From the IMG/VR virus record IMGVR_UViG_2737471862_000005, positions 1-10,625 of that record: a stretch of 10,625 bases of DNA; one strand, given 5' to 3'. This document shows positions 91 through 9,297 of this stretch, in pieces; position 1 is the first letter of the stretch, and every line of letters starts with the position of its first letter. A program made the position numbers and the translations under genes. A model generated the notes under the pieces. It saw nothing but the letters and a program-made list of their open reading frames with translations, was not told where the DNA came from and ran no database searches. This DNA comes from a virus (taxonomy: Duplodnaviria > Heunggongvirae > Uroviricota > Caudoviricetes).

Positions 91-105
91 TTAGTATAAA
101 AAAGC
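91..105 (-). repeat. attR core (15-bp common core, reverse complement of GCTTTTTTATACTAA), flanked on the left by the attB B' arm
   Basis: ttagtataaaaaagc at 91-105; reverse complement of 75-90 reads CTTGAGCGAAACGGG, matching the B' arm of attB as I recall it. Confidence 0.9.
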
Positions 106-250
106 TGAACGAGAAACATAAAATGTTATAAATATCAATATATTACATTTTATTTCGTATAAAAAACAGACTAGATAATACTGTAAAACACAACATATGC
201 AGTCACTATGAATCAACTACTTAGATGGTATTAGTGACCTGTAACAGAGC
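106..250 (-). promoter_or_regulatory. Lambda attP P arm with arm-type Int binding sites
   Basis: CAGTCACTAT at 200-209 and inverted AGGTCACTAAT (reverse complement of 230-240) match the arm-site consensus C/AAGTCACTAT; the surrounding AT-rich sequence matches my recollection of the P arm. Confidence 0.8.
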
Positions 251-292
251 ATTAGCGCAAGGTGATTTTTGTCTTCTTGCGCTAATTTTTTG
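251..292 (+). terminator. sib / tI hairpin (int retroregulation site and terminator), here separated from int by the prophage arrangement
   Basis: 11-bp perfect stem ATTAGCGCAAG (251-261) / CTTGCGCTAAT (276-286), 14-nt loop, followed by TTTTTT (287-292). Confidence 0.6.
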
Positions 293-627
293 TCGTAAAA
301 TCGGTAACGTCTGGAAATCATTCAATATTCGCACTATCGGAAGTTCACCAGCCAACCGCAGCACGTTATTGCATACAACGTACTGCGGCATAAAACCAAT
401 GATTATTCCTTCCCGCACATGACATACCGCGACTTTATTTATCCCCAGCAGGAAATTTTTCATACAACTTCGCCCCACCAACATCACAGGTAATTGTTCC
501 GCCTGTGTATTCTCGCGCCAACATCTACCACAATTTGTTTTCATAGGATTGTAGTCACTCTTCTGGTTGTTTCACATAATAACTTGTATACTTCAGATAG
601 TATTCATAACCTCAAACTATTTAATGT

Positions 628-634
628 ATAAATT
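628..634 (+). promoter_or_regulatory. Candidate extended -10 element upstream of the 239-aa gene
   Basis: TGTATAAAT at 626-634, about 30 bp upstream of the ATG at 663; AGGA Shine-Dalgarno at 651-654; no convincing -35. Confidence 0.25.
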
Positions 635-662
635 AGATCTGAAAGTTTAGGAAAGATTTTCT

Positions 663-1382
663 ATGTTGATCGTTTCTGTACTACGCTGCGGCAAGGATTT
701 TACGCCGAAACATGCACAATGGCTTCATAAACAATTTGGTTCAATGCCCTCAATCTGCTTGACTGATGCTGGAAGTATTGATGGTGTGAATACTGCACCT
801 TTGTTATTTGATTGGCCTGGTTGGTGGTCAAAAATGGAGTTATTTAACCCAAACCATCCAGTAATCGGGAATCATGACATTTTATATTTTGACATAGATG
901 TTGTCATTACTGGAAAATTGGATATTTTTACAAAAGCTAAAAATTTCACCATGCTCAGGGAGTTTAATCATCATGACCGTGTTAACTCCTCAATTATGAT
1001 GATTCCCGTTTCTGCAAAGACAAAAATATGGGAGGAATTTACTGCCAATCCTGAACAAATAATGCAAGAATGCAAAACTGAAGATAAATGGGGTGATCAA
1101 GGTTTTATCGGTAGTGTTACTAAGCCAGACTTATGGCAGGACATTATTCCAGATGCAATTAAAAGTTATAAATGCGATATAGCAACAAAATCAATGATTG
1201 GATACAATCCAGACCTGGCATCAAAATCAGCAACTGGGAAAGTACCTGACAGTGTTTCAGTTGTGTGTTTTCACGGTAGTCCACGCCCCTGGCGCACTGG
1301 TTTTAACTGGGTTCCATCTTTTTCTTTAAAAGATACGCTTTATGGCAAAGTAAAAAATCTCAAATTAAAGGTTAAAGGTTAA
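663..1382 (+). CDS. Hypothetical 239-aa protein, non-lambda b-region cargo; has a DxD-like stretch (LYFDIDVVITG) reminiscent of GT-A nucleotide-sugar transferases
   Basis: Long ORF with upstream SD; sits where lambda carries ea59 but is unrelated to it in size; partly AT-rich; function not recognisable. Confidence 0.6.
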   Translation: MLIVSVLRCGKDFTPKHAQWLHKQFGSMPSICLTDAGSIDGVNTAPLLFDWPGWWSKMELFNPNHPVIGNHDILYFDIDVVITGKLDIFTKAKNFTMLREFNHHDRVNSSIMMIPVSAKTKIWEEFTANPEQIMQECKTEDKWGDQGFIGSVTKPDLWQDIIPDAIKSYKCDIATKSMIGYNPDLASKSATGKVPDSVSVVCFHGSPRPWRTGFNWVPSFSLKDTLYGKVKNLKLKVKG

Positions 1383-1397
1383 AGGTTAAAGGTTAAA
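1365..1397. repeat. Heptamer tandem repeat (TTAAAGG) x4 plus a partial fifth copy, overlapping the stop codon of the 239-aa ORF
   Basis: Perfect copies at 1365-1371, 1372-1378, 1379-1385, 1386-1392, then TTAAAAT. Confidence 0.9.
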
Positions 1398-1402
1398 ATC
1401 AT

Positions 1403-1425
1403 AACCACTCGCATAGCGGGTGGTT
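1403..1425 (-). terminator. Candidate terminator hairpin between the convergent 239-aa gene and tfa
   Basis: AACCACTCGC (1403-1412) / GCGGGTGGTT (1416-1425), 9 of 10 pairs, 3-nt loop; on the minus strand it is followed by AUGAUUUUAA, about 70 nt past the tfa stop. Confidence 0.35.
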
Positions 1426-1495
1426 ATCTGTCTCAGCCACGATACGCCTGAAACTGGCTTTAAGTCAGCAATAATAAAAGGAGTAAATCCTTCCG

Positions 1496-2065
1496 TTATT
1501 GTGGTTGCACAGGCCAAACTGGCTCAAGAATATCAACACGGTTCAGCAATACCCGATACTTCTTCCAGGCTGTCAGCAACGATATTTCTTCCTCCGTTGC
1601 AATCTCCAGATCTACCGCATCCTGAAGTGGCGAAATATGCTCACTGGCTACCTGCATCAGGCTGTTTTTTGTTTCTTCCGCCTCCCGGATCCGGAACAGT
1701 TTTTCTGCTTCTGCATCTTTCACCCAGGCTGTGCCGTTCCACTTCTGAAACTCCCCTTCCGGCGATAACCAGGTAACATTTTCCGGTAACGGACCGAGTT
1801 CAGAAATAAATAAAGCATCACCGGAAGTTACGTCATATACAGTTTTACCTCGGTGGTCTTCAACAATATTCCAAGATTTATTCTCACTGTTAAAAACAGC
1901 CACAAATCCAGCCTCCACATCTGGTGGTGCTATATCTGTAGTATTAGCTGGTAGACCTGTATACGGTGGGATATATGCGTCACTTTCCCCAATAAATTCA
2001 TTGGTTCCATCAAGTAAATTAAATACGCGGATAGTTTGTGCTTCTGCACTCATTCTGAAAGTCAT
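1496..2065 (-). CDS. tfa: Tail fiber assembly protein Tfa
   Basis: 189-aa translation ([27 protein letters not shown]...[28 protein letters not shown]...) is near-identical over most of its length to lambda Tfa as I recall it; start ATG overlaps the stf stop as TAATG. Confidence 0.9.
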
Positions 2066-3570
2066 TATGCAAGCCTCACAATATAGTTAAATGCGATGTT
2101 TTTGACGGTGTTTTCGGTATTACCAGTAGCATTTACGGTAATGGAATGCCCGTGTGAGCCAATGGCAACAGTGTGTGAATGTGCACCAATACCAACAGTA
2201 TGGTTATGTGCTCCAATGTCGACTGTATGTGCATGATTGCCTGATGAACTAGTAGTCGTAGCACCTTTATCACTTCGCGGAACACCATAATTTGCACCGC
2301 CTGATTGCACGCTCACAGCAAAACCGACGGTATGTGTATGATTGCCTGAAGTATTGGTTGATTTTGTGCCGTGGTTAAACGTACTGACTGTCTTCGTGCC
2401 GTAATCAAATGAACTGGTCGTTTTCGTCCCTAAATCCGTATTTGACGCACTGGCGCTGTGAGTATGCGATTTAATCCCGTCCTGTTCCTGTGATAATACA
2501 GCACGCCCACTGGCGGGTTTGCCCTTGATTGTCCAGCCGCGCATATCCGGAATAACACCAGAAGGATAGGCTATAGCCAGTTTCGGATATGCAGATTTGT
2601 CAAAAGTCTGCCCCTGCATCAGGGCATAGCCAGACGGAACGGTATCTGATGGCCACGGGATTGGTGCGCCGACTGGATAAAACTCTGCAGGAGGATGAGC
2701 CGAGGTGTAAAGCTGCGCCCACGGCGACCAGTTTGCGTCGGTCGTATCCCGTCGTGAACGAATAAATGCCGGAGCATGAGCACCGCTTGTACCACTCCAG
2801 CCGATGAGTAACTCACCTTCGCCAACGGCTGTCATCCCTTTCAGGTGAATGATATTTCCATACGCTGTTGGATATCCGTTGTTATACACCTCGTATAACT
2901 CAAGACCTGCTGCCCCCTGCGTATTGTCTGTCAGCGCGGCTACCCGACCTTTTGAAGCCAGATTAACTGATGATACTGCTGTTCCACCTGACGGTAGCGC
3001 CCCGATCTCTGATGCCGTTGGCTTATTTCTGGAGTTATAGTCCCTTCGCCAACCAGGTGAATAATCTGTTCCGTGATTAATATAGGTAAACTGGGCGTTG
3101 GTTGTTCCGCCACCGCTGGATGTGGTCGGAGTGGTAATGCGGATCGTCATCGCTGACTTTATCCCCATTACTTCAATGACAGCTCCGGCGAGATGAATAT
3201 TACCGCAGCCAGTATCAGTAATGATTTTATTATTGCCATAAGACCAGGAACCCTTGCACATCCAGTATGGATGGTTAAATGCTCCCTGAGAATCCAGCCA
3301 CTCGATAAACTGTGCAGTCGTCCAGTTTCCTGTTGTTGTGCTTACTGACCCACCGAAGGCACGGCAGGCACCAATATTTTTCGTAAAGGTATCTTTGCCA
3401 GGGATATCCGCACCGTTCTGATCTTTCTGCAGACGTTTCTCAGCATTGTCATTGGCTGCTTTTACTGCCTTTGGTGTCGCGGCAAGCGTTTCAGACGTGC
3501 TGTTGGTCGCGCTGCTTAGCTGGATTATCCCTTTCTGTGCTGTCGTTGCATCCTGTGCGGTGTATTTCCC
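2065..3570 (-). pseudogene. stf: Side tail fiber gene stf, 5'-truncated: C-terminal ~500 codons retained with no in-frame start at the truncation point
   Basis: Frame is open from the junction to the TAA at 2065-2067; contains the tail-fiber motif [38 protein letters not shown], repeated HxH motifs and the C-terminus ...[13 protein letters not shown]; first in-frame ATG is internal at 3261. Confidence 0.85.
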
Positions 3571-3768
3571 GTTAACGATGAAACCATGCAGGAGATTAAC
3601 ACTCTGCTGATCGCCCTGGATAAAACATGGGATGACGACTTATTGCCGCTCTGTTCCCAGATATTTCGCCGCGACATTCGCGCATCGTCAGAACTGACAC
3701 AGGCCGAAGCAGTGAAAGCTCTTGGATTCCTGAAACAGAAAGCCACTGAGCAGAAGGTGGCAGCATGA
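3568..3768 (+). pseudogene. bet: bet (Red-beta) 3' fragment, last ~66 codons only
   Basis: Translation ...[66 protein letters not shown] matches the lambda Bet C-terminus; upstream sequence is tail-fiber antisense, not bet. Confidence 0.85.
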
Positions 3769-4445
3769 CACCGGACATTATCCTGCAGCGTACCGGGATC
3801 GACGTGAGAGCTGTCGAACAGGGGGATGATGCATGGCACAAATTACGGCTCGGCGTCATCACCGCTTCAGAAGTTCACAACGTGATAGCAAAGCCCCGCT
3901 CCGGAAAAAAGTGGCCTGACATGAAAATGTCCTACTTCCACACCCTGCTGGCTGAGGTTTGCACCGGTGTGGCTCCGGAAGTTAATGCTAAGGCGCTGGC
4001 ATGGGGAAAACAGTACGAGAACGACGCCAGAACTCTGTTTGAATTCACTTCCGGCGTGAATGTTACTGAATCCCCGATCATCTATCGCGACGAAAGTATG
4101 CGTACCGCCTGCTCTCCCGATGGTTTATGCAGTGACGGCAATGGCCTTGAGCTGAAATGCCCGTTTACCTCCCGGGATTTCATGAAGTTCCGGCTCGGTG
4201 GTTTCGAGGCCATAAAGTCGGCTTACATGGCCCAGGTGCAGTACAGCATGTGGGTGACGCGAAAAGATGCCTGGTACTTTGCCAACTATGACCCGCGTAT
4301 GAAGCGTGAAGGCCTGCATTATGTCGTGGTTGAGCGGGATGAAAAGTACATGGCGAGTTTTGACGAGATGGTGCCGGAGTTCATCGAAAAAATGGACGAG
4401 GCACTGGCTGAAATTGGTTTTGTATTTGGGGAGCAATGGCGATGA
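3765..4445 (+). CDS. exo: Lambda exonuclease (Red-alpha)
   Basis: 226-aa translation matches lambda Exo almost residue for residue; ATG overlaps the bet stop (ATGA); SD AAGGTGG upstream. Confidence 0.95.
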
Positions 4446-4624
4446 AGCATCCTCACGATAATATCCGGGTAGGTGCGATCATTTTCGTCTACTCCGTTAC
4501 AAAGCGAGGCTGGGTATTTCCCGGCCTTTCTGTTATCAGAAATCCCCTGAAAGCACAGCGGCTGGCTGAGGAGATAAATAATAAACGGGGAGCTGTATGC
4601 ACAAAGCATCTCCCGTTGAGTTAA
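4442..4624 (+). CDS. orf60a: Exo-xis region protein Orf60a
   Basis: 60-codon ORF whose ATG (4442) overlaps the exo stop as ATGA; the ORF track start at 4436 is an upstream in-frame ATG. Confidence 0.75.
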
Positions 4625-4788
4625 GAACGAGTATCGAGATGGCACATAGCCTCGCTCAAATTGGAGTCAGGTTTGTGCCAATACCAGTAGAAACAGACGA
4701 AGAATTTCATACGTTAGCCGCATCCCTTTCACAAAAGCTGGAAATGATGGTGGCGAAAGCAGAAGCAGATGAGAGAGACCAGGTATGA
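4597..4788 (+). CDS. orf63: Exo-xis region protein Orf63
   Basis: 63-aa ORF in the expected position and order after orf60a. Confidence 0.75.
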   Translation: MHKASPVELRTSIEMAHSLAQIGVRFVPIPVETDEEFHTLAASLSQKLEMMVAKAEADERDQV

Positions 4789-4868
4789 CAACCACTGAAT
4801 GCATTTTTCTGGCAGCGGGCTTCATATTCTGTGTGCTTATGCTTGCCGACATGGGGCTTGTTCAATGA
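4785..4868 (+). CDS. Candidate 27-aa hydrophobic micro-ORF (MTTTECIFLAAGFIFCVLMLADMGLVQ)
   Basis: ATG overlaps the orf63 stop (ATGA, 4785-4788) and its TGA overlaps the next ATG (ATGA, 4865-4868); almost entirely hydrophobic, consistent with a single membrane helix. Confidence 0.3.
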   Translation: MTTTECIFLAAGFIFCVLMLADMGLVQ

Positions 4869-5080
4869 CACCTCAGCAAGAAAACGCCCTTCGCAGCATT
4901 GCCCGTCAGGCTAATTCTGAAATCAAAAAAGCCAGACAGCAGTTTCCGGATAAAAACGTCGATGACATTTGCCGTAGCGTACTGAAGAAGCACCGCGAAA
5001 CGGTAACGCTGATGGGATTCACACCGACTCATTTAAGCCTGGCAATCGGCATGTTAAACGGCGTCTTTAAGGAACGATGA
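4865..5080 (+). CDS. Exo-xis region small protein (orf61-like position), 71 aa from the ATG at 4865
   Basis: Same frame as ORF-track 4799..5080; the ATG at 4865 is coupled to the upstream micro-ORF stop; exact start uncertain. Confidence 0.55.
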   Translation: MTPQQENALRSIARQANSEIKKARQQFPDKNVDDICRSVLKKHRETVTLMGFTPTHLSLAIGMLNGVFKER

Positions 5081-5102
5081 ACATGAAAAGCAAAATTATC
5101 AG

Positions 5103-5124
5103 GGAGCTACAGGCTCCTTTTTTA
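5103..5124 (+). terminator. Candidate intrinsic terminator in the exo-xis region
   Basis: GGAGC (5103-5107) / GCTCC (5113-5117) stem, 5-nt loop, followed by TTTTTTAT (5118-5125). Confidence 0.4.
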
Positions 5125-5178
5125 TTGCTCGCATTTACCCCCAAGCGTATTAACCAACAATTCAGGGATTAATGGAAG

Positions 5179-5400
5179 ATGGCAGACATCATTGATTCAG
5201 CATCAGAAATTGAAGAATTACAGCGCAACACAGCAATAAAAATGCGCCGCCTGAACCACCAGGCTGTATCTGCCACTCATTGTTGTGAGTGTGGCGATCC
5301 CATAGATGAGCTAAGACGCCTGGCCGTTCAGGGTTGTCGGACTTGTGCAAGTTGCCAGGAAGATCTGGAGCTTATCAGTAAACAGAGAGGTTCGAAGTGA
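5179..5400 (+). CDS. orf73: TraR/DksA-family C4 zinc-finger protein (lambda Orf73-like)
   Basis: 73 aa with CxxC-N17-CxxC (CCECGDP...CRTCASC) typical of TraR/DksA zinc fingers; position matches orf73 in the exo-xis region. Confidence 0.75.
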   Translation: MADIIDSASEIEELQRNTAIKMRRLNHQAVSATHCCECGDPIDELRRLAVQGCRTCASCQEDLELISKQRGSK

Positions 5401-5648
5401 GCGTAATTCACTCTCAGGCACTGCGTGAAGCGGCAGAGCAGGCAATGCCTGACAACTGGGGATTTGACGCGGACCTTTTCCATGAGCTGGTAACACCATC
5501 GATTGTGCTGACACTGCTGGATGAACGGGAAAGAAACCAGCAATACATCAAACGCCGCGACCAGGAGAACGAGGATATTGCGCTAACGGTGGGGAAACTG
5601 CGTGTTGAGCTGGAGACAGCAAAAATCAAAACTCAACGAGCAGCGTGA
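5397..5648 (+). CDS. ea22: Ea22-like protein, N-terminal 83 codons, ending at an in-frame TGA (see findings)
   Basis: GTG start overlapping the orf73 stop (GTGA); called from its position after orf73 in the expected exo-xis gene order; the same frame stays open for 53 more codons after the TGA. Confidence 0.55.
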   Translation: MSVIHSQALREAAEQAMPDNWGFDADLFHELVTPSIVLTLLDERERNQQYIKRRDQENEDIALTVGKLRVELETAKIKTQRAA

Positions 5649-5946
5649 GTAGAAGGTGTTATCTCGGATGGAAGTAAGCGTATTGCTGAACTGGAGGCCT
5701 GGGTTGAATACACAAGAGCTGCATACGTAAGAGCAAAAGACAAGGGAGATTTGATCAGAGTTATTACCCGCCAACCAACGGGATTTTACGCTTACGTACC
5801 ATGTAATTAGGAATCCTTGAAGTGGCAGCCTAACTGCGGATACACTGAAATGGCGATTTGGTAACATGTTTCGCACAAGGCTGTTACTACACTTAGAGAT
5901 AATCAGCCATGATTAAACGCTTTGTAAAAAGTAAAAGGAAATTACA

Positions 5947-6561
5947 ATGAAAAAATCAATACTAATTTTAGGGCTTACGTTAATTGTCTCATCTCAAATA
6001 CCATCGGCAATGGCAAAAAATGAATCAAAACTATGGGTTGTTGTTGATCGAACGGAAAGACATACCTGCCCTTCAAGTAAATGTGGAGTGGCTGGGAAAC
6101 TATTTTTCAGGGAAGGCGTAGATTTTCTAGAAAAAAAAGGTGAATGGGTTCGTATAACTGAGCCATATTCAGCCTCATGTGTTGGAGGGGAAAGCGAATA
6201 TATTAAAGAAGGTAATAAATCCTGCACAAGAAAAAATGGAATCGTTAATGGCAAGTTTTCAGAATGGGTTAAACTTAGTGATCTTAGCAGTGAAAGGCCA
6301 TCAGATCCTGCTGAAAATGCGAGCGGAGATGATACTTTAATCAAAGGATCTGATGACTACCGTATATACAAAAAAGAGTTTTCTTCGGCAGCTAGGAAGT
6401 TAATAAATGAAGGGGTCTGCACGGAAAGCGATTTTAAGGAAATCGGAGGGTGGATGGCATCAAGCAATAAGGGTGAAAACATCTATTTCACATATTGCGG
6501 AGGAATGACGTTGTCGAACAGAATATACCTAGATGTTAAAAGTGGAAAGACTTTTAGATAA
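5947..6561 (+). CDS. Secreted (Sec signal peptide) Cys-rich 204-aa protein of unknown function; AT-rich cargo gene
   Basis: N-terminus MKKSILILGLTLIVSSQIPSAMA/KNESK with AxA cleavage motif; six Cys in the mature part; SD AAGGA 7 nt upstream; a sampled 60-nt stretch is ~30% GC. Confidence 0.75.
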   Translation: MKKSILILGLTLIVSSQIPSAMAKNESKLWVVVDRTERHTCPSSKCGVAGKLFFREGVDFLEKKGEWVRITEPYSASCVGGESEYIKEGNKSCTRKNGIVNGKFSEWVKLSDLSSERPSDPAENASGDDTLIKGSDDYRIYKKEFSSAARKLINEGVCTESDFKEIGGWMASSNKGENIYFTYCGGMTLSNRIYLDVKSGKTFR

Positions 6562-6630
6562 TATGATATTACCAATGACAGTATTGATTTAATGCCTCCA
6601 TAGAATTATCTCTAGGAAGTAGGTATAAGA

Positions 6631-6668
6631 AAAGCCCGCACAATGAGCTGCTGCGGGCTTTGTGTTAT
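6631..6668 (+). terminator. Intrinsic terminator (possibly bidirectional) downstream of the 204-aa gene
   Basis: 10-bp stem AAAGCCCGCA (6631-6640) / TGCGGGCTTT (6652-6661), 11-nt loop, followed by GTGTTATT; A-tract upstream and T-tract downstream. Confidence 0.55.
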
Positions 6669-6711
6669 TCGCCATATTTTATGAAGCAAATACGACACTA
6701 TAGATAATTAA

Positions 6712-6812
6712 GCGTTGCTGGTTGTCGATTCCTCAATCACTCCTGTTGATGGCTCTCTTCTTGTATGTGCCATTGAAGGGGAATATCGCGTAAAAAGATA
6801 CCGGAAGTATCC
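6712..6812 (+). pseudogene. Fragment of an S24 peptidase (LexA/UmuD/CI-type) C-terminal domain
   Basis: Frame opens right after a TAA and reads LLVVDSSITPVDGSLLVCAIEGEYRVKRYRKYP, resembling UmuD [34 protein letters not shown] and LexA VVVARIDDEVTVKRLKK; no N-terminal part and no continuation in any frame. Confidence 0.5.
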
Positions 6813-6854
6813 GCGCCGCCATGATTGTCTTTCTCCTGATGCAGGAAAAGCAGA

Positions 6855-7193
6855 ATGGCTAAATCAGCAACAGAGCACAAAGCCGATCAGAGAGCCAAGC
6901 AAGCATCATCCGGTATGCGTAAGCTGGAGCTTGTACTTGATGCTCAGGAAATTGAAATGCTGGAGCGTAACTGTGCCACGCGTCGCTTCAGGCGTGCGCC
7001 TTGCGAGTTTGGTGAGTACATCGCGTTACTGAGCCGCCAGGATGATGCACGTGTGCGCTGGCGTATAAAATCGATCAGCAGAAAACGGTGCGGTAAGTGC
7101 GGCGAGAGAGTTCCTGTTAATTCATGCCCGTGTAATGGTGACTCACAATGCTGGGTGACCAAAGGCTGGCACGAAACAAAATTAATGATATAA
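6855..7193 (+). CDS. Small DNA-binding-type protein: ribbon-helix-helix-like N-terminal region plus C-terminal zinc ribbon; possibly the Ea8.5 counterpart
   Basis: 112-aa ORF with SD AGGA 8 nt upstream; RKLELVLDAQEIEMLERNCATRRFRRAPCEFGEYIALL fits a beta-alphaA-alphaB RHH pattern; C-terminus CGKCG...CPC...C...H is a zinc-ribbon motif. Confidence 0.6.
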   Translation: MAKSATEHKADQRAKQASSGMRKLELVLDAQEIEMLERNCATRRFRRAPCEFGEYIALLSRQDDARVRWRIKSISRKRCGKCGERVPVNSCPCNGDSQCWVTKGWHETKLMI

Positions 7194-7199
7194 ATCTCT

Positions 7200-7211
7200 G
7201 TGACATGTCAC
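7200..7211. promoter_or_regulatory. Perfect 12-bp palindrome GTGACATGTCAC in the 28-bp spacer between the 112-aa and 142-aa genes; candidate operator
   Basis: Exact dyad symmetry read directly from the sequence; lies just 5' of the GGAGG SD (7213-7217) of the 142-aa ORF. Confidence 0.4.
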
Positions 7212-7221
7212 GGAGGCGGCA

Positions 7222-7650
7222 ATGAAATTAGACCAGCAATATCTAAAAGATCTACTTATCGCATTCGAAAAAACTCGTGGCCCTGACACGATGCTTAGTG
7301 AACTAGAGGATAATGGCTTTAATAGATATGACCAAGATTTTATTTTCCATATGCGATTATTATGTGACTACGAATTAATAGTCAGGGTTGATGGAAAACC
7401 TGGGTTCGGTCATATATTGTCCAAAGCGTTAGGGGAAGGTGTTGGATATAGTTGGATCGAAGTACCACTGAGGTTGACAGCAAGAGGGCATGATTTTATT
7501 GCTGACTTACGTCAAAAGGATGTCTGGCAAGCTATAAAAACAAACTTTAAGGATGAGGGAATTAGTACACTTATGAGTGTTTCAAAATCACTAGCAAAAG
7601 GCTTTGCAAGGAAAAAGATAAAAGATATTACAGGAATAGATATTGAATAA
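7222..7650 (+). CDS. Hypothetical 142-aa cytoplasmic protein; AT-rich cargo gene
   Basis: Strong SD GGAGG 5 nt upstream of the ATG; no signal peptide; visibly AT-rich; followed by a terminator. Confidence 0.7.
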   Translation: MKLDQQYLKDLLIAFEKTRGPDTMLSELEDNGFNRYDQDFIFHMRLLCDYELIVRVDGKPGFGHILSKALGEGVGYSWIEVPLRLTARGHDFIADLRQKDVWQAIKTNFKDEGISTLMSVSKSLAKGFARKKIKDITGIDIE

Positions 7651-7695
7651 TTCTTAGCATCAAGCAACTACTGCCTTTGGTGGAAATTATATCTG

Positions 7696-7720
7696 AACTC
7701 GCTACGGCGAGTTTTGTTTT
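7696..7720 (+). terminator. Intrinsic terminator downstream of the 142-aa gene
   Basis: AACTCGC (7696-7702) / GCGAGTT (7707-7713), 4-nt loop TACG, followed by TTGTTTT (7714-7720). Confidence 0.55.
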
Positions 7721-7733
7721 ATGGAGATGATAA

Positions 7734-7901
7734 ATGCACTTCCGAGTCACAGGTAAATGGAATGGAGAGCCATTCAACAGGGTTATCGAAGCAGAGAACA
7801 TCAACGACTGTTATAACCACTGGATGATATGGGCGCAGATAGCACATGCAGACGTAACCAATATTCGAATTGAAGAACTGAAAGAACACCAAGCCGCCTG
7901 A
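7734..7901 (+). CDS. orf55: Exo-xis region protein Orf55
   Basis: 55-codon ORF (MHFRVTGKWNGEPFNRVIEAENINDCYNHWMIWAQIAHADVTNIRIEELKEHQAA) with SD GGAG 8 nt upstream; below the ORF-track size cutoff; lies immediately upstream of xis. Confidence 0.65.
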   Translation: MHFRVTGKWNGEPFNRVIEAENINDCYNHWMIWAQIAHADVTNIRIEELKEHQAA

Positions 7902-7914
7902 TGGCGGTTTTTTC
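7893..7914 (+). terminator. Weak candidate terminator overlapping the orf55 stop
   Basis: GCCGCC (7893-7898) / GGCGG (7903-7907) with loop TGAT, followed by TTTTTTC. Confidence 0.3.
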
Positions 7915-7955
7915 TTGCGTGTAATTGCGGAGACTTTGCGATGTACTTGACACTT
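7915..7955 (+). promoter_or_regulatory. pI (int promoter) region with cII-type TTGC-N6-TTGC recognition motif
   Basis: TTGC at 7915-7918 and 7925-7928 separated by 6 nt, just upstream of and overlapping the xis 5' end, as in lambda pI. Confidence 0.55.
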
Positions 7956-8159
7956 CAGGAGTGGAACGCACGCCAGCGACGCCCAAGAAGCCTTGAAACA
8001 GTTCGTCGATGGGTACGCGAGTGCAGGATATTCCCTCCTCCGGTTAAGGATGGAAGAGAGTATCTGTTCCACGAATCAGCGGTAAAGGTTGACTTAAATC
8101 GACCAGTAACAGGTAGCCTTTTGAAGAGGATCAGAAATGGGAAGAAGGCGAAGTCATGA
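7941..8159 (+). CDS. xis: Excisionase Xis
   Basis: 72-aa translation MYLTLQEWNARQRRPRSLETVRRWVRECRIFPPPVKDGREYLFHESAVKVDLNRPVTGSLLKRIRNGKKAKS matches lambda Xis; 3' end overlaps int by 23 nt. Confidence 0.95.
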   Translation: MYLTLQEWNARQRRPRSLETVRRWVRECRIFPPPVKDGREYLFHESAVKVDLNRPVTGSLLKRIRNGKKAKS

Positions 8160-9207
8160 GCGCCGGGATTTACCCCCTAACCTTTATATAAGAAACAATG
8201 GATATTACTGCTACAGGGACCCAAGGACGGGTAAAGAGTTTGGATTAGGCAGAGACAGGCGAATCGCAATCACTGAAGCTATACAGGCCAACATTGAGTT
8301 ATTTTCAGGACACAAACACAAGCCTCTGACAGCGAGAATCAACAGTGATAATTCCGTTACGTTACATTCATGGCTTGATCGCTACGAAAAAATCCTGGCC
8401 AGCAGAGGAATCAAGCAGAAGACACTCATAAATTACATGAGCAAAATTAAAGCAATAAGGAGGGGTCTGCCTGATGCTCCACTTGAAGACATCACCACAA
8501 AAGAAATTGCGGCAATGCTCAATGGATACATAGACGAGGGCAAGGCGGCGTCAGCCAAGTTAATCAGATCAACACTGAGCGATGCATTCCGAGAGGCAAT
8601 AGCTGAAGGCCATATAACAACAAACCCTGTCGCTGCCACTCGCGCAGCAAAATCAGAGGTAAGGAGATCAAGACTTACGGCTGACGAATACCTGAAAATT
8701 TATCAAGCAGCAGAATCATCACCATGTTGGCTCAGACTTGCAATGGAACTGGCTGTTGTTACCGGGCAACGAGTTGGTGATTTATGCGAAATGAAGTGGT
8801 CTGATATCGTAGATGGATATCTTTATGTCGAGCAAAGCAAAACAGGCGTAAAAATTGCCATCCCAACAACATTGCATGTTGATGCTCTCGGGATATCAAT
8901 GAAGGAAACACTTGATAAATGCAAAGAGATTCTTGGCGGAGAAACCATAATTGCATCTACTCGTCGTGAACCGCTTTCATCCGGCACAGTATCAAGGTAT
9001 TTTATGCGCGCACGAAAAGCATCAGGTCTTTCCTTCGAAGGGGATCCGCCTACCTTTCACGAGTTGCGCAGTTTGTCTGCAAGACTCTATGAGAAGCAGA
9101 TAAGCGATAAGTTTGCTCAACATCTTCTCGGGCATAAGTCGGACACCATGGCATCACAGTATCGTGATGACAGAGGCAGGGAGTGGGACAAAATTGAAAT
9201 CAAATAA
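8137..9207 (+). CDS. int: Tyrosine integrase Int
   Basis: 356-aa translation MGRRRSHERRDLPPNLYIRNNGYYCYRDPRTGKEFGLGRDRRIAITEAIQ... matches lambda Int at full length; stop codon abuts the P' arm. Confidence 0.97.
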   Translation: MGRRRSHERRDLPPNLYIRNNGYYCYRDPRTGKEFGLGRDRRIAITEAIQANIELFSGHKHKPLTARINSDNSVTLHSWLDRYEKILASRGIKQKTLINYMSKIKAIRRGLPDAPLEDITTKEIAAMLNGYIDEGKAASAKLIRSTLSDAFREAIAEGHITTNPVAATRAAKSEVRRSRLTADEYLKIYQAAESSPCWLRLAMELAVVTGQRVGDLCEMKWSDIVDGYLYVEQSKTGVKIAIPTTLHVDALGISMKETLDKCKEILGGETIIASTRREPLSSGTVSRYFMRARKASGLSFEGDPPTFHELRSLSARLYEKQISDKFAQHLLGHKSDTMASQYRDDRGREWDKIEIK

Positions 9208-9282
9208 TGATTTTATTTTGACTGATAGTGACCTGTTCGTTGCAACAAATTGATAAGCAATGCTTTTTTATAATGCCAACTT
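9208..9282 (-). promoter_or_regulatory. Lambda attP P' arm with arm-type Int sites
   Basis: Reverse complement of 9210-9229 gives AGGTCACTAT and CAGTCAAAAT; reverse complement of the whole segment matches the P' arm as I recall it (TTGGCATTATAAAAAAGCATTGCTTATCAATTTGTTGCAACGAACAGGTCACTATCAGTCAAAATAAAATCATT). Confidence 0.85.
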
Positions 9283-9297
9283 AGTATAAAAAAGCAG
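9283..9297 (-). repeat. attL core (15-bp common core), followed by the attB B arm
   Basis: ttagtataaaaaagc at 9283-9297, identical to 91-105; the next bases caggcttca are the reverse complement of the B arm TGAAGCCTG. Confidence 0.9.

Follow-up and report, generated by a model that had tools for sequence, protein, structure and literature searches.

The gtr and oac modules of temperate phages typically lie between the tail-spike or tail-fibre genes and the att site, and the gene described here occupies the same position in a prophage remnant. Like it, the gtrABC and oac genes of P22 and SfV are prophage cargo; they alter LPS and block superinfection, an effect that is well established for P22 gtrABC (PMC7380047). 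Gtr systems comprise three integral-membrane proteins (the GtrA flippase, the bactoprenol glucosyltransferase GtrB and the membrane transferase GtrC) that act in the periplasm on the O-antigen by way of a sugar carried on bactoprenol, whereas the enzyme analyzed here is a single soluble cytoplasmic GT-A protein. A Gtr-type system was rejected, as there is only one gene, its product has no transmembrane segment and no gtr-like ORF is found in its neighbourhood. In lambda, the slot between tfa and attP carries ea47, ea31 and ea59 on the strand that follows the direction of int; the gene under study has the same slot and the same strand but no sequence similarity to them, and it stands alone, with 0.7 kb, where lambda has three genes covering about 4 kb. 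The closest phage relatives that have been named are PmgQ of P1 and HdmD of P7, which belong to the same protein family (PHROG 1962). P1 pmgQ differs by its location, in a late "putative morphogenetic" block beside ppp and not near att or tail-fibre genes, and by the lack of a polybasic tail in its product.

Organization of the locus

The window, i.e. the whole stretch of 10,625 nucleotides that was analyzed, contains the following features around the gene.

91..300, no strand: attR, with the att core, a lambda-type P arm and sib/tI (core repeat, 95% identity to lambda 27529-27738)
545..662, + strand: AT-rich intergenic region (28% GC), candidate autonomous promoter (promoter scan 9/12)
663..1382, + strand: GT8-like (GT-A fold) glycosyltransferase gene, 239 aa, soluble product, ATG start, TAA stop
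891-899, 1092-1100 and 1272-1292, + strand: motif codons for DxD (D77-I-D79), GDQ (residues 144-146) and H-G-S-P-R-P-W (residues 204-210), respectively
1365..1397, + strand: perfect heptanucleotide tandem repeat TTAAAGG x4.7 (TRF)
1405..1419, no strand: short GC-rich hairpin, terminator-like on the - strand (terminator scan), between the convergent glycosyltransferase and tfa genes
1496..2065, - strand: tfa, tail-fibre assembly protein (RefSeq annotation), convergent with the glycosyltransferase gene and part of the tip-tfa-glycosyltransferase module
2065..3552 (ORF 2065-3261), - strand: 3′ part of stf, 5′-truncated, annotated "phage tail protein, missing N-terminus"

The prophage around the gene is a 9.2-kb remnant, a point that the original prediction did not raise; about 37 kb are missing, among them every regulatory gene and most of the structural ones. 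The exact lambda att core, TTAGTATAAAAAAGC, is found at 91-105 and a second copy at 9281-9295. Since ybhB ends just left of the window, the start of the window is the attR (bio-side) end, and the attR segment stands between the glycosyltransferase gene and the host ybhB. Starting at the core, P-arm and sib DNA of the lambda type covers about 210 bp (95% identity, megablast), and similarity to HK97 covers about 298 bp, including an annotated "sib retroregulation site", after which it ends. The original prediction placed a 239-aa ORF between the sib region and tfa, and the ORF is present exactly there, in the same orientation as int (8137-9207, + strand). It also set a b region of about 1.4 kb against one of about 6 kb in lambda: the first value agrees with the interval of about 1.39 kb between the att core and the tfa stop, but the tfa-to-att distance of lambda is nearer 5.2 kb. 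The statement that the gene is foreign to lambda stood, since a tblastn search of 50,697 phage records with the protein gave matches in 32 records, none of them from lambda, and the megablast match to lambda was confined to 210 bp beside the core; an overlooked lambda ea gene was thus rejected.

The region is very close to that of a viable phage, Chlobot, on which our literature search found no paper. Positions 87-2676 of the window are 99.9% identical to Chlobot, whereas positions 2677-3566 are not, and the identity of the remnant to the live phage is 99.5-99.9%. The ORF is intact, and its product is 100% identical to that of the Chlobot copy over the aligned part, which comprises 227 residues (95% of the protein). 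It is a real gene and not a chance ORF, since its family profile retrieves 3,615 cluster representatives at E ≤ 1e-10 and its structure is modelled with a pLDDT of 96.8.

The GC content of the gene is 38%, compared to 46% for the window. In its upstream region, hexamers weakly resembling sigma-70 sites occur at 552-580 (TAGTCA-17-CATAAT) and 587-592 (TATACT), and an AGGA of Shine-Dalgarno type occupies 649-652; the P2-like copy of E. coli AH19B041 shares a conserved block of 105 bp (558-662) with this region. The promoter-like -10 element that had been attributed to the gene was not confirmed, as a promoter scan of positions 1-1600 gave eight sites against 5.0 ± 2.3 in shuffled sequences, which is not above chance. 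Expression in the remnant is therefore unproven, because of this result and because tI/sib lie upstream. The gene could even be a passenger, i.e. leftover DNA of the remnant that contributes nothing to strain ES5 and is silent because it is AT-rich, stands behind tI and has lost pL/N. The extent of the deletion and the promoter scan agree with such a situation, as does the near identity to the live phage, which would have left no time for selection. This explanation nevertheless seems very unlikely to us, given the integrity of the ORF and its identity to the Chlobot copy over the aligned residues, the large size of the family, the strong conservation of its motifs and the conservation of the upstream block in a different type of phage. 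Moreover, it concerns only expression in strain ES5 and not the action of the protein.

The heptamer array encodes the last residues of the protein (KVKG) and the stop codon, and extends beyond the latter. In the three other E. coli genomes matching at ≥99% (all at 99.1%), the corresponding span is 869 bp compared to 876 bp, a difference of 7 bp. Because the stop codon lies inside the array, the copy number of the heptamer cannot shift the frame of the catalytic domain; phase variation through this repeat was ruled out.

Fold, motifs and enzyme class

The GT8 family groups retaining alpha-hexosyltransferases such as LgtC, WaaJ/WaaO, glycogenin and Gat1; WaaJ, WaaO and LgtC are LPS/LOS outer-core enzymes. 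The original prediction of a GT-A type nucleotide-sugar transferase, made from a motif-level resemblance, is now strongly supported by profile matches to solved GT8 enzymes and by a structural model with a GT-A fold. The protein matches PHROG 1962 "glycosyltransferase" with an E-value of 4e-76 (residues 1-225 on profile positions 1-226 of 230). A family profile, from which the conservation figures also derive, was built from 102 homologue sequences; it retrieves solved GT8 enzymes with E-values of 3.6e-7 to 1e-3, including Gat1 (3.6e-7), glycogenin (2.5e-5) and GlyE, and its DxD, GDQG and HxGxxKPW motifs match theirs column by column. With hhalign, the same motifs align to those of WaaJ (1.2e-5) and WaaO (4e-4) from E. 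coli. The AF2 model (pTM 0.93) is a single Rossmann-like alpha/beta/alpha domain of the GT-A type, whose best Foldseek matches are LgtC (5.9e-8), Gat1 and glycogenin; a search of BFVD found a viral "Glycosyl transferase, family 8" at a TM-score of 0.70. Thus, the profile and structure searches proposed at the outset as a check on the prediction did find a nucleotide-binding GT-A fold.

Nine residues are invariant in the 102 homologues (K57, D77, D79, G144, D145, H204, G205, P207 and P209) and three others are conserved in at least 90% of them (Q146, R208 and W210). The DxD-like stretch noticed beforehand, LYFDIDVVITG, corresponds to residues 74-84 and contains D77 and D79; the motif follows a hydrophobic strand (L74-Y-F-D77-I-D79-V-V) and aligns to FMDADT of glycogenin and YLDADV of WaaJ. 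Beyond DxD, the protein possesses the other motifs of the GT8 set, i.e. the (G)DQ catalytic loop and the C-terminal H-x2-G-x2-K-P-W, whose histidine is the third metal ligand; these align to GGDQG and HFLGQTKPW of glycogenin and to PDQD and GATKPW of WaaJ. Despite this profile homology, these motifs and their position as nearest structural neighbours, the GT8 enzymes share only 10-16% identity with the protein, which is phage-borne and about 100 residues shorter than WaaJ/WaaO. The profile alignments to GT8 begin at residues 27-57, and the family consensus of the N-terminal segment (IVxVLRxGxEY) gave no alignment to the GT8 uridine-binding motif. The donor nucleotide is therefore uncertain, as the N-terminal nucleotide-binding segment lies outside the aligned part.

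Some methods did not detect this relationship. Pfam gave no match for the protein even at E ≤ 10; the GT8 model PF01501 matched 19 of the 102 members, all below threshold (best E-value 0.0023). Single-sequence searches with NCBIfam, and with phmmer against PDB, returned nothing useful, whereas PHROGs, profile and structure methods did. No PADLOC model of defence systems matched at E ≤ 0.01.

The hydrophobic N-terminus described in the original prediction is strand beta-1 (residues 2-7) of the predicted fold, and an N-terminal signal peptide was rejected on this basis. The maximum hydropathy over 19 residues (0.98) indicates that there is no transmembrane segment. The protein ends with a polybasic tail (residues 222-239) that is conserved only in the prophage clade of the family (net charge +5 to +11). 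An amphipathic C-terminal helix anchoring the protein to the membrane was also considered, but its hydrophobic moment (0.27) does not exceed that of shuffled sequences (0.26 ± 0.13, p = 0.42) and the idea of an anchor was dropped.

Distribution of the family and mobility of the gene

Within the family, the NCBI names are all "hypothetical protein"; for the PHROG 1962 relatives P1 PmgQ and P7 HdmD, RefSeq and pharokka-style annotations already say "glycosyltransferase". P1 PmgQ is 36% identical to the protein over 92% of its length. Literature on PmgQ was found only as essentiality and expression tables: P1 pmgQ is non-essential in CRISPRi and knockout screens, and its knock-down causes no plating defect (PMC10695390).

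Chromosomal relatives with about 40% identity and the same motifs were found in Klebsiella, Raoultella, Morganella, Erwinia and Rosenbergiella. They are 213-217 aa long, lack the basic tail and, together with P1 PmgQ, appear in the tree as the sister clade of the clade that includes the gene of the window. Nine of the 78 genome loci have a gene for a Wzy_C/O-antigen-ligase-like (WaaL-like) protein immediately downstream, after a gap of about 7-13 bp. The pair of Klebsiella sp. R390 adjoins hldD, two GT9 heptosyltransferase genes and GT4 and GT2 genes; that of Morganella lies between coaBC-radC and mutM...waaA, i.e. in the waa locus, and that of Rosenbergiella is outside any waa locus. These WaaL-paired relatives thus differ from the gene of the window by their chromosomal location, partly inside waa loci; the latter belongs to a prophage b region and not to an LPS core cluster, and linkage to waa is known only for relatives with about 40% identity.

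The gene is rare in E. coli (24 of 5,426 complete genomes) and occupies various sites: (i) the b region of lambdoid phages, (ii) the vicinity of tfa in a P2-like prophage, (iii) the interval between ogr and A in another P2-like prophage, (iv) a prophage edge after fibre and chaperone genes, (v) a degraded prophage and (vi) the P1 genome, as pmgQ. Its low GC content and its differing positions in lambdoid, P2-like and P1 genomes designate it as a cargo gene, in line with what had been anticipated. Among the usual attributes of morons, atypical composition and variable presence and position are observed, together with a downstream hairpin and a conserved upstream block, while the promoter scan stayed at chance. 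The gene is best explained as a mobile cargo unit ("moron") accompanied by its AT-rich upstream region.

The last 200 residues of the truncated Stf are of the T4 gp37/lambda Stf tip type (62-65% identity to T4 gp37 and lambda orf-314). The glycosyltransferase, tip and Tfa genes remain neighbours, in both orientations, across lambdoid and P2-like phages. The identities of the glycosyltransferase, Tfa and fibre tip to those of the window are 91/87/97% in locus L086, 75/54/74% in L094, 75/63/60% in L006 and 55/44/62% in L097. These comparisons suggest that the gene of the enterobacterial clade usually moves together with a tip of the T4 gp37/lambda Stf type and the Tfa chaperone of this tip. In a search for Tfa homologues in 80 genome loci, adjacency was seen only in close relatives, so this linkage is a property of the enterobacterial prophage clade and not of the whole family.

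Candidate acceptors and biological significance

Our tentative reading is that the gene encodes a metal-dependent, retaining, GT-A/GT8-like glycosyltransferase that modifies the LPS core and is mobile with the fibre module. In this reading, the integrity of the gene, its fold, the conservation of its motifs, its mobility and its linkage to the fibre module are demonstrated, whereas the donor sugar, the retention of configuration, the LPS acceptor, expression in the lysogen and any phenotype are inferred. D77 and D79, with H204, would hold a divalent cation to which the diphosphate of the donor binds; this donor would be a nucleotide sugar, probably a UDP-hexose, with phosphates contacted by K57 and R208. 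The G144-D145-Q146 loop would cover the sugar, at the place of Q189 of LgtC and of the D-Q catalytic loop of glycogenin, and the sugar would be passed to the acceptor with retention of configuration. The most likely acceptor would be the core oligosaccharide of LPS on the cytoplasmic side of the inner membrane; as the enzyme is soluble and cytoplasmic, any action on LPS would concern the core before export. The core exposed by the lysogen or infected cell would then be altered, changing the adsorption of phages with such fibres, and the outcome would be lysogenic conversion or receptor masking by one soluble enzyme. LPS is favoured as acceptor because of the pairing of relatives with WaaL-like genes, their presence in waa loci and in the sister clade, the existence of GT8 enzymes acting on LPS, the linked fibre tip and the precedent of P22 gtrABC. 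Tips of the T4 gp37/lambda Stf type bind OmpC and/or glucose of the LPS core.

Several observations weaken the assignment to the LPS core: (i) identity to the waaL-linked relatives is only about 40%, and the acceptor specificity of GT-A enzymes changes easily, (ii) PF01501 is not significant for any of the 102 members, (iii) P1 pmgQ belongs to late "morphogenetic" genes and 47 phage contigs show structural neighbours, and (iv) the linkage to tail-fibre genes could merely reflect a hot spot of recombination for cargo genes.

The third of these points suggests that the enzyme could act on virions. In the 47 environmental phage contigs, neighbours within two genes include head-tail adaptors (n = 21), head closure proteins (n = 8), virion structural proteins (n = 8), a second glycosyltransferase-like protein (phrog_4603, n = 8) and a methyltransferase (n = 8). 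The structural neighbours point to virion glycosylation for these members of the family, and P1 pmgQ itself stands within the pmg block beside a PmgS-like head-morphogenesis gene. Applied to the gene of the window, this would mean that its cytoplasmic target during lytic growth is one of the structural proteins of the phage, most plausibly the Stf/tip; glycosylation of this protein could alter receptor binding, stability or immune recognition. The co-divergence of the gene with tip and Tfa across lambdoid and P2-like phages is compatible with this, and GT8 enzymes that act on proteins are known (glycogenin, Gat1 on Skp1 and GlyE on serine-rich adhesins). In the free phage, the gene is downstream of int on the same strand, where, if the lambda ea genes are a guide, antiterminated pL transcripts could read it in the lytic cycle. 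The glycosylation of mycobacteriophage capsids and tail tubes provides a precedent (Freeman et al. 2023, as cited in PMC11256854). The enzymes of these phages (Che8 and relatives), which are likened here by description only, are also soluble phage glycosyltransferases, and distant members of the present family belong to head/connector modules that include a second transferase and a methyltransferase; the gene of the window is outside the structural operon and found in phages of Gram-negative hosts. Being convergent with tfa/stf, it is also outside the late operon. Furthermore, some copies are far from fibre genes (between ogr and A; in the degraded prophage), the closest relatives outside phages lie in waa loci in pairs with WaaL-like genes, and the knock-down of P1 pmgQ does not affect plating. 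We know of no glycosylated virion protein in coliphages, and our literature searches found none. Modification of the virion by this enzyme appears unlikely.

The co-divergence with the fibre tip could also indicate a functional coupling of the enzyme to this tip, either by a one-protein, cytoplasmic conversion of the LPS core or by glycosylation of the fibre, but we consider such a coupling doubtful.

Another acceptor could be an undecaprenyl-linked intermediate of O-antigen, ECA or capsule, a host protein, or a small molecule or nucleotide signal. Not only WaaL but also polymerases and protein O-oligosaccharyltransferases are Wzy_C proteins, and the partners of the chromosomal relatives may be other than WaaL; the Rosenbergiella pair outside any waa locus and the polybasic tail of the prophage clade, which is otherwise unaccounted for, would also fit. 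We regard this as a rather improbable alternative, since the signals from genomic context point to LPS or virions and PADLOC gave no match.

Phages do encode DNA glycosyltransferases (bioRxiv 10.1101/2023.12.21.572611), and the enzyme might add a sugar to modified bases of phage DNA and thereby allow restriction evasion. Neither the window nor the 16.7 kb of Chlobot that were examined contains a gene of a hydroxymethyl-pyrimidine pathway, and the chromosomal relatives are paired with WaaL-like genes. To our knowledge, lambda-like, P2-like and P1 phages have no hypermodified bases. Identity as a DNA glycosyltransferase was rejected for want of base-modification genes nearby, and this reading is extremely unlikely.

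To return to the LPS core, no paper on its conversion by a prophage GT8 enzyme was found. If masking of LPS is true, it would be mechanistically distinct from Gtr and Oac and would mask the receptor or co-receptor of the linked fibre type. If the core is remodelled, the gene would act as a small and portable determinant of susceptibility to phages, moving among lambdoid, P2-like and P1-like phages with a receptor-binding module, which would bear on host-range prediction and on the design of phage-therapy cocktails. If it is instead the fibre that is glycosylated, classical coliphages would gain their first example of a glycosylated virion protein, reaching P1 through PmgQ; with decorated virions, phage glycosylation would reach beyond actinobacteriophages into the classical coliphage models.

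At present, a cargo glycosyltransferase in a prophage remnant is a sound and unsurprising annotation. Either outcome would give a function (i) to a family of about 3,600 clusters without any Pfam or NCBIfam match, (ii) to P1 pmgQ, for which this question has been open since the annotation of the P1 genome, and (iii) to several thousand "hypothetical" proteins, including the conserved partner of the WaaL-like protein in Klebsiella, Raoultella and Morganella.

A lambdoid prophage remnant and its b-region gene

The window matches the chromosome of E. coli ES5 (NZ_CM184343.1) at 100% over the 3.4 kb compared, and the exact lambda att core TTAGTATAAAAAAGC is found at 91-105 and again at 9281-9295.

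Gene order around and between the two att cores
Left of the left core: host ybhB
Right of the left core: P arm/sib
663-1382, + strand: ORF under study
1496-2065, - strand: tfa
Next after tfa, - strand: stf, truncated at its 5′ end
Next: 3′ fragment of bet
Next, + strand: exo through xis, then int
9342 onward, right of the right core: host ybhC

For the left end, the original prediction was correct in every positional detail: the region lies next to attR, with sib, a single ORF in the int orientation and tfa in that order, and the b region measures about 1.4 kb. Identity to the viable lambdoid phage Chlobot (PP925838.1) reaches 99.9% over 87-2676 and 99.5% over 3567-9295, and about 37 kb of the latter phage is absent, with the genes for head, tail, lysis, replication and immunity. 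At the junction (around 3553-3566), the 5′-truncated stf runs straight into the last 69 or so codons of bet. The element at 91-9295 is therefore a remnant of 9.2 kb, bounded by the two att cores, and a single large deletion inside the prophage fused stf to bet. Since the retained parts are almost identical to a viable phage, this deletion is recent. Positions 2677-3566, within the stf fragment, have no match in Chlobot while their flanks are >99% identical; the fibre shaft is mosaic, whereas the cassette made of the fibre tip, tfa and ORF 663-1382 is common to both elements. Similarity to lambda ends about 210 bp from the att core and that to HK97 about 298 bp from it.

Two other ORFs deserve mention. 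A 107-aa ORF (221-544, - strand) overlaps P arm/sib on the opposite strand; it is annotated as a hypothetical CDS in Chlobot, contains a 99-bp "capsid protein" pseudogene in RefSeq (293-391), was negative in a PADLOC scan and is probably not a real gene. A 204-aa ORF (5947-6561, + strand), located in the early-left region between an ea22-like fragment and xis, has a signal-peptide-like N-terminus (MKKSILILGLTLIVSSQIPSAMA) and a counterpart labelled "hypothetical" in Chlobot; no PADLOC match was found, and it may be a second cargo gene with an exported product.

ORF 663-1382 is a genuine gene, as indicated by four observations: (i) the Chlobot "glycosyltransferase" is 100% identical to its product over 227 aligned residues (95% of the length), (ii) the exact protein is present on 499 contigs from several Escherichia species, (iii) a profile of 102 homologues retrieves 3,615 representatives of 50% identity clusters from 1.84 billion proteins (E<=1e-10), and (iv) the AlphaFold model is very confident (pLDDT 96.8, pTM 0.93). 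A perfect heptanucleotide tandem repeat (TTAAAGG x4.7, 1365-1397) covers the last four codons of the gene and its stop codon and extends into the 3′ spacer. This span is exactly 7 bp shorter in the three other E. coli genomes with matches at least 99% identical, which suggests slippage; as the stop codon is inside the array, a change in copy number leaves the catalytic domain unaffected.

Enzyme class of the encoded protein

With the protein sequence alone as query, Pfam, NCBIfam, PDB and PADLOC gave no match. In PHROGs, it corresponds end to end to phrog_1962, "glycosyltransferase" (E 4e-76), and the phage homologues P1 PmgQ and P7 HdmD share 36% identity with it over 92% of its length. Compared with solved GT8 enzymes, the family profile matches Gat1, the Skp1 alpha-galactosyltransferase (3.6e-7), glycogenin-1/-2 (2.5e-5 to 1e-3) and GlyE (0.008). 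In this profile search, K57, D77-x-D79, G144-D-Q and H204-G-x-P-R-P-W align to the K, DxD, GGDQG and HFLGxxKPW of glycogenin. K57, D77, D79, G144, D145, H204, G205, P207 and P209 are invariant in all 102 sequences, and Q146, R208 and W210 are conserved in at least 90% of them. An hhalign comparison with WaaJ (E 1.2e-5) and WaaO (4e-4) of E. coli K-12, two GT8 glucosyltransferases of the LPS outer core, keeps these motifs in register. Foldseek ranks LgtC, Gat1 and glycogenin first (E 6e-8 to 2e-7), and the best named match in a viral structure library is a phage "Glycosyl transferase, family 8" (TM 0.70). The initial, weak impression of a GT-A enzyme, drawn at motif level, was therefore right and can be sharpened: the protein is very probably a GT8-like glycosyltransferase. 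Plain GT8 membership is withheld because the curated Pfam GT8 model reaches significance for none of the 102 members (best E 0.0023) and because the N-terminal nucleotide-binding segment lies outside all profile alignments, which also leaves the donor nucleotide unsettled.

In the modelled fold, the hydrophobic N-terminus forms strand beta-1, and no 19-residue stretch of the protein is hydrophobic enough for a membrane span. The C-terminus is a polybasic tail (residues 222-239, window 1326-1379; net charge +5 to +11), kept only in the enterobacterial prophage clade; the waaL-linked, P1 and environmental clades lack it. A helix is predicted for this tail, with an amphipathicity no higher than that of shuffled controls.

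Mobility of the gene and linkage to the fibre tip

The gene is rare in E. coli: at the DNA level, 24 of 5,426 complete genomes carry it, with one copy each. Its GC content is 38%, compared to 28% for the upstream spacer and 46% for the window.

Positions of the copies
Window and Chlobot: b region of lambdoid phages
L086: P2-like prophage, in convergent orientation to tfa (84.6% identical at the nucleotide level)
L085: a second P2-like prophage, flanked by ogr and replication gene A
L087: degraded prophage near mntS
L003: outer edge of a P2/Mu-type prophage, directly after tail-fibre and chaperone genes
Prophages of Salmonella and other enterobacteria: next to tail-fibre genes

The low GC, the rarity and these varied positions bear out the proposal of a cargo gene, and the distribution is that of a cargo unit ("moron"). 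The L086 match starts 105 bp upstream of the ATG, indicating that an upstream block moves with the gene; an AT-rich spacer precedes it in other contexts too, and in L085 follows the ogr terminator. The lambda tI/sib terminator lies upstream of the gene and, since pL and N are gone, expression in the remnant would need a promoter of its own. The proposed promoter is only a candidate: the best sigma-70-like site (552-580) scores 9/12, but such sites are no more numerous in the region than in shuffled sequences. Overall, the observation is confirmed and its interpretation supported, except for the detail of an own promoter.

In the enterobacterial clade, divergence of the glycosyltransferase goes along with that of the neighbouring chaperone and of the fibre's last 200 residues.

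Identity to the window copy (glycosyltransferase / Tfa / fibre tip)
L086: 91 / 87 / 97%
L094: 75 / 54 / 74%
L006: 75 / 63 / 60%
L097: 55 / 44 / 62%

Adjacency to the fibre module is retained whatever the orientation (convergent in four loci, co-directional in two). With 62-65% identity to T4 gp37 and to lambda Stf, the tip belongs to their type, which recognizes OmpC and/or LPS core glucose. The three components thus form a cassette that moves as one between siphovirus and myovirus backbones, a cohesion that may have a functional reason or result simply from long-standing linkage on the DNA. In L006 (Salmonella enterica s1, 4496-8786), the homologue has a divergent tail-fibre gene (469 aa) on one side and a second fibre/tfa pair on the other, an arrangement reminiscent of the invertible fibre segments of Mu and P1.

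Acceptor and significance for the family

Two groups of relatives suggest different acceptors. In nine of 78 genome loci (Klebsiella, Raoultella, Erwinia, Rosenbergiella, Morganella and Martelella), a homologue about 40% identical to the window protein and annotated as "hypothetical" directly precedes a Wzy_C/O-antigen-ligase-like gene. In this conserved two-gene unit (L017, L018, L019, L021, L022, L023, L026, L057 and L067; about 6000-7900 in each), a 213-217-aa homologue is separated by about 7-13 bp from the gene for a WaaL-like (Wzy_C) protein of about 408 aa. Two of the pairs are found in waa loci: the one from Klebsiella sp. R390 adjoins hldD, two GT9 heptosyltransferase genes and GT4 and GT2 genes, and that from Morganella is flanked by coaBC-radC on one side and mutM...waaA on the other, in the classical waa locus. 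The unit may represent an unrecognised step of LPS-core synthesis or ligation. In a distance tree devoid of support values, these relatives group with P1 PmgQ in a clade that is sister to the prophage clade of the window.

Other homologues, 33-39% identical to the window protein, occur on 47 environmental phage contigs, where the neighbours within two genes include head-tail adaptors (21), head-closure proteins (8), virion structural proteins (8), a second, MptE/Maf-type transferase-like protein (8) and methyltransferases (8). Distant homologues (environmental viral contigs L099-L161, proteins P0092-P0100) lie in head-tail connector modules beside an MptE/Maf-like "sialyltransferase" (phrog_4603) and a methyltransferase, and fusions of both transferase domains (400-700 aa) occur. 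This arrangement is similar to that of mycobacteriophage virion-glycosylation cassettes (Freeman et al. 2023, as cited in PMC11256854) and looks like a cassette for virion-glycan synthesis in phages of Gram-negative hosts. For the window enzyme, we consider virion (fibre) glycosylation unlikely, and some other acceptor about equally so.

Our tentative preference goes to the LPS core, because the waaL-linked proteins are closer relatives, GT8 includes enzymes of the LPS/LOS outer core, the gene lies outside the late operon in convergent orientation, and LPS alteration by prophages is a well-established strategy against superinfection. LPS-altering prophage genes are typically placed between the tail genes and att. 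Some of them, such as gtrABC of P22, block superinfection (PMC7380047). Unlike Gtr, the window enzyme is a single soluble protein, which would modify the core before export.

The P1 gene pmgQ owes its name, for a "putative morphogenetic function", to where it lies, and it is non-essential according to CRISPRi and earlier knockouts (PMC10695390). Our literature search found no functional study of any family member. The fold assignment is not new, since the genes of Chlobot and of P1 in RefSeq are already called "glycosyltransferase" by automated annotation; this work narrows it to GT8-like on the basis of conserved catalytic motifs and adds how large the unclaimed family is, its waaL-linked chromosomal branch and the co-inheritance with fibre tip and chaperone. 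As a piece of phage cargo, the window protein adds a new, so far uncharacterised example to a known kind of enzyme, and its function, once found, could extend to P1 PmgQ and thousands of relatives.
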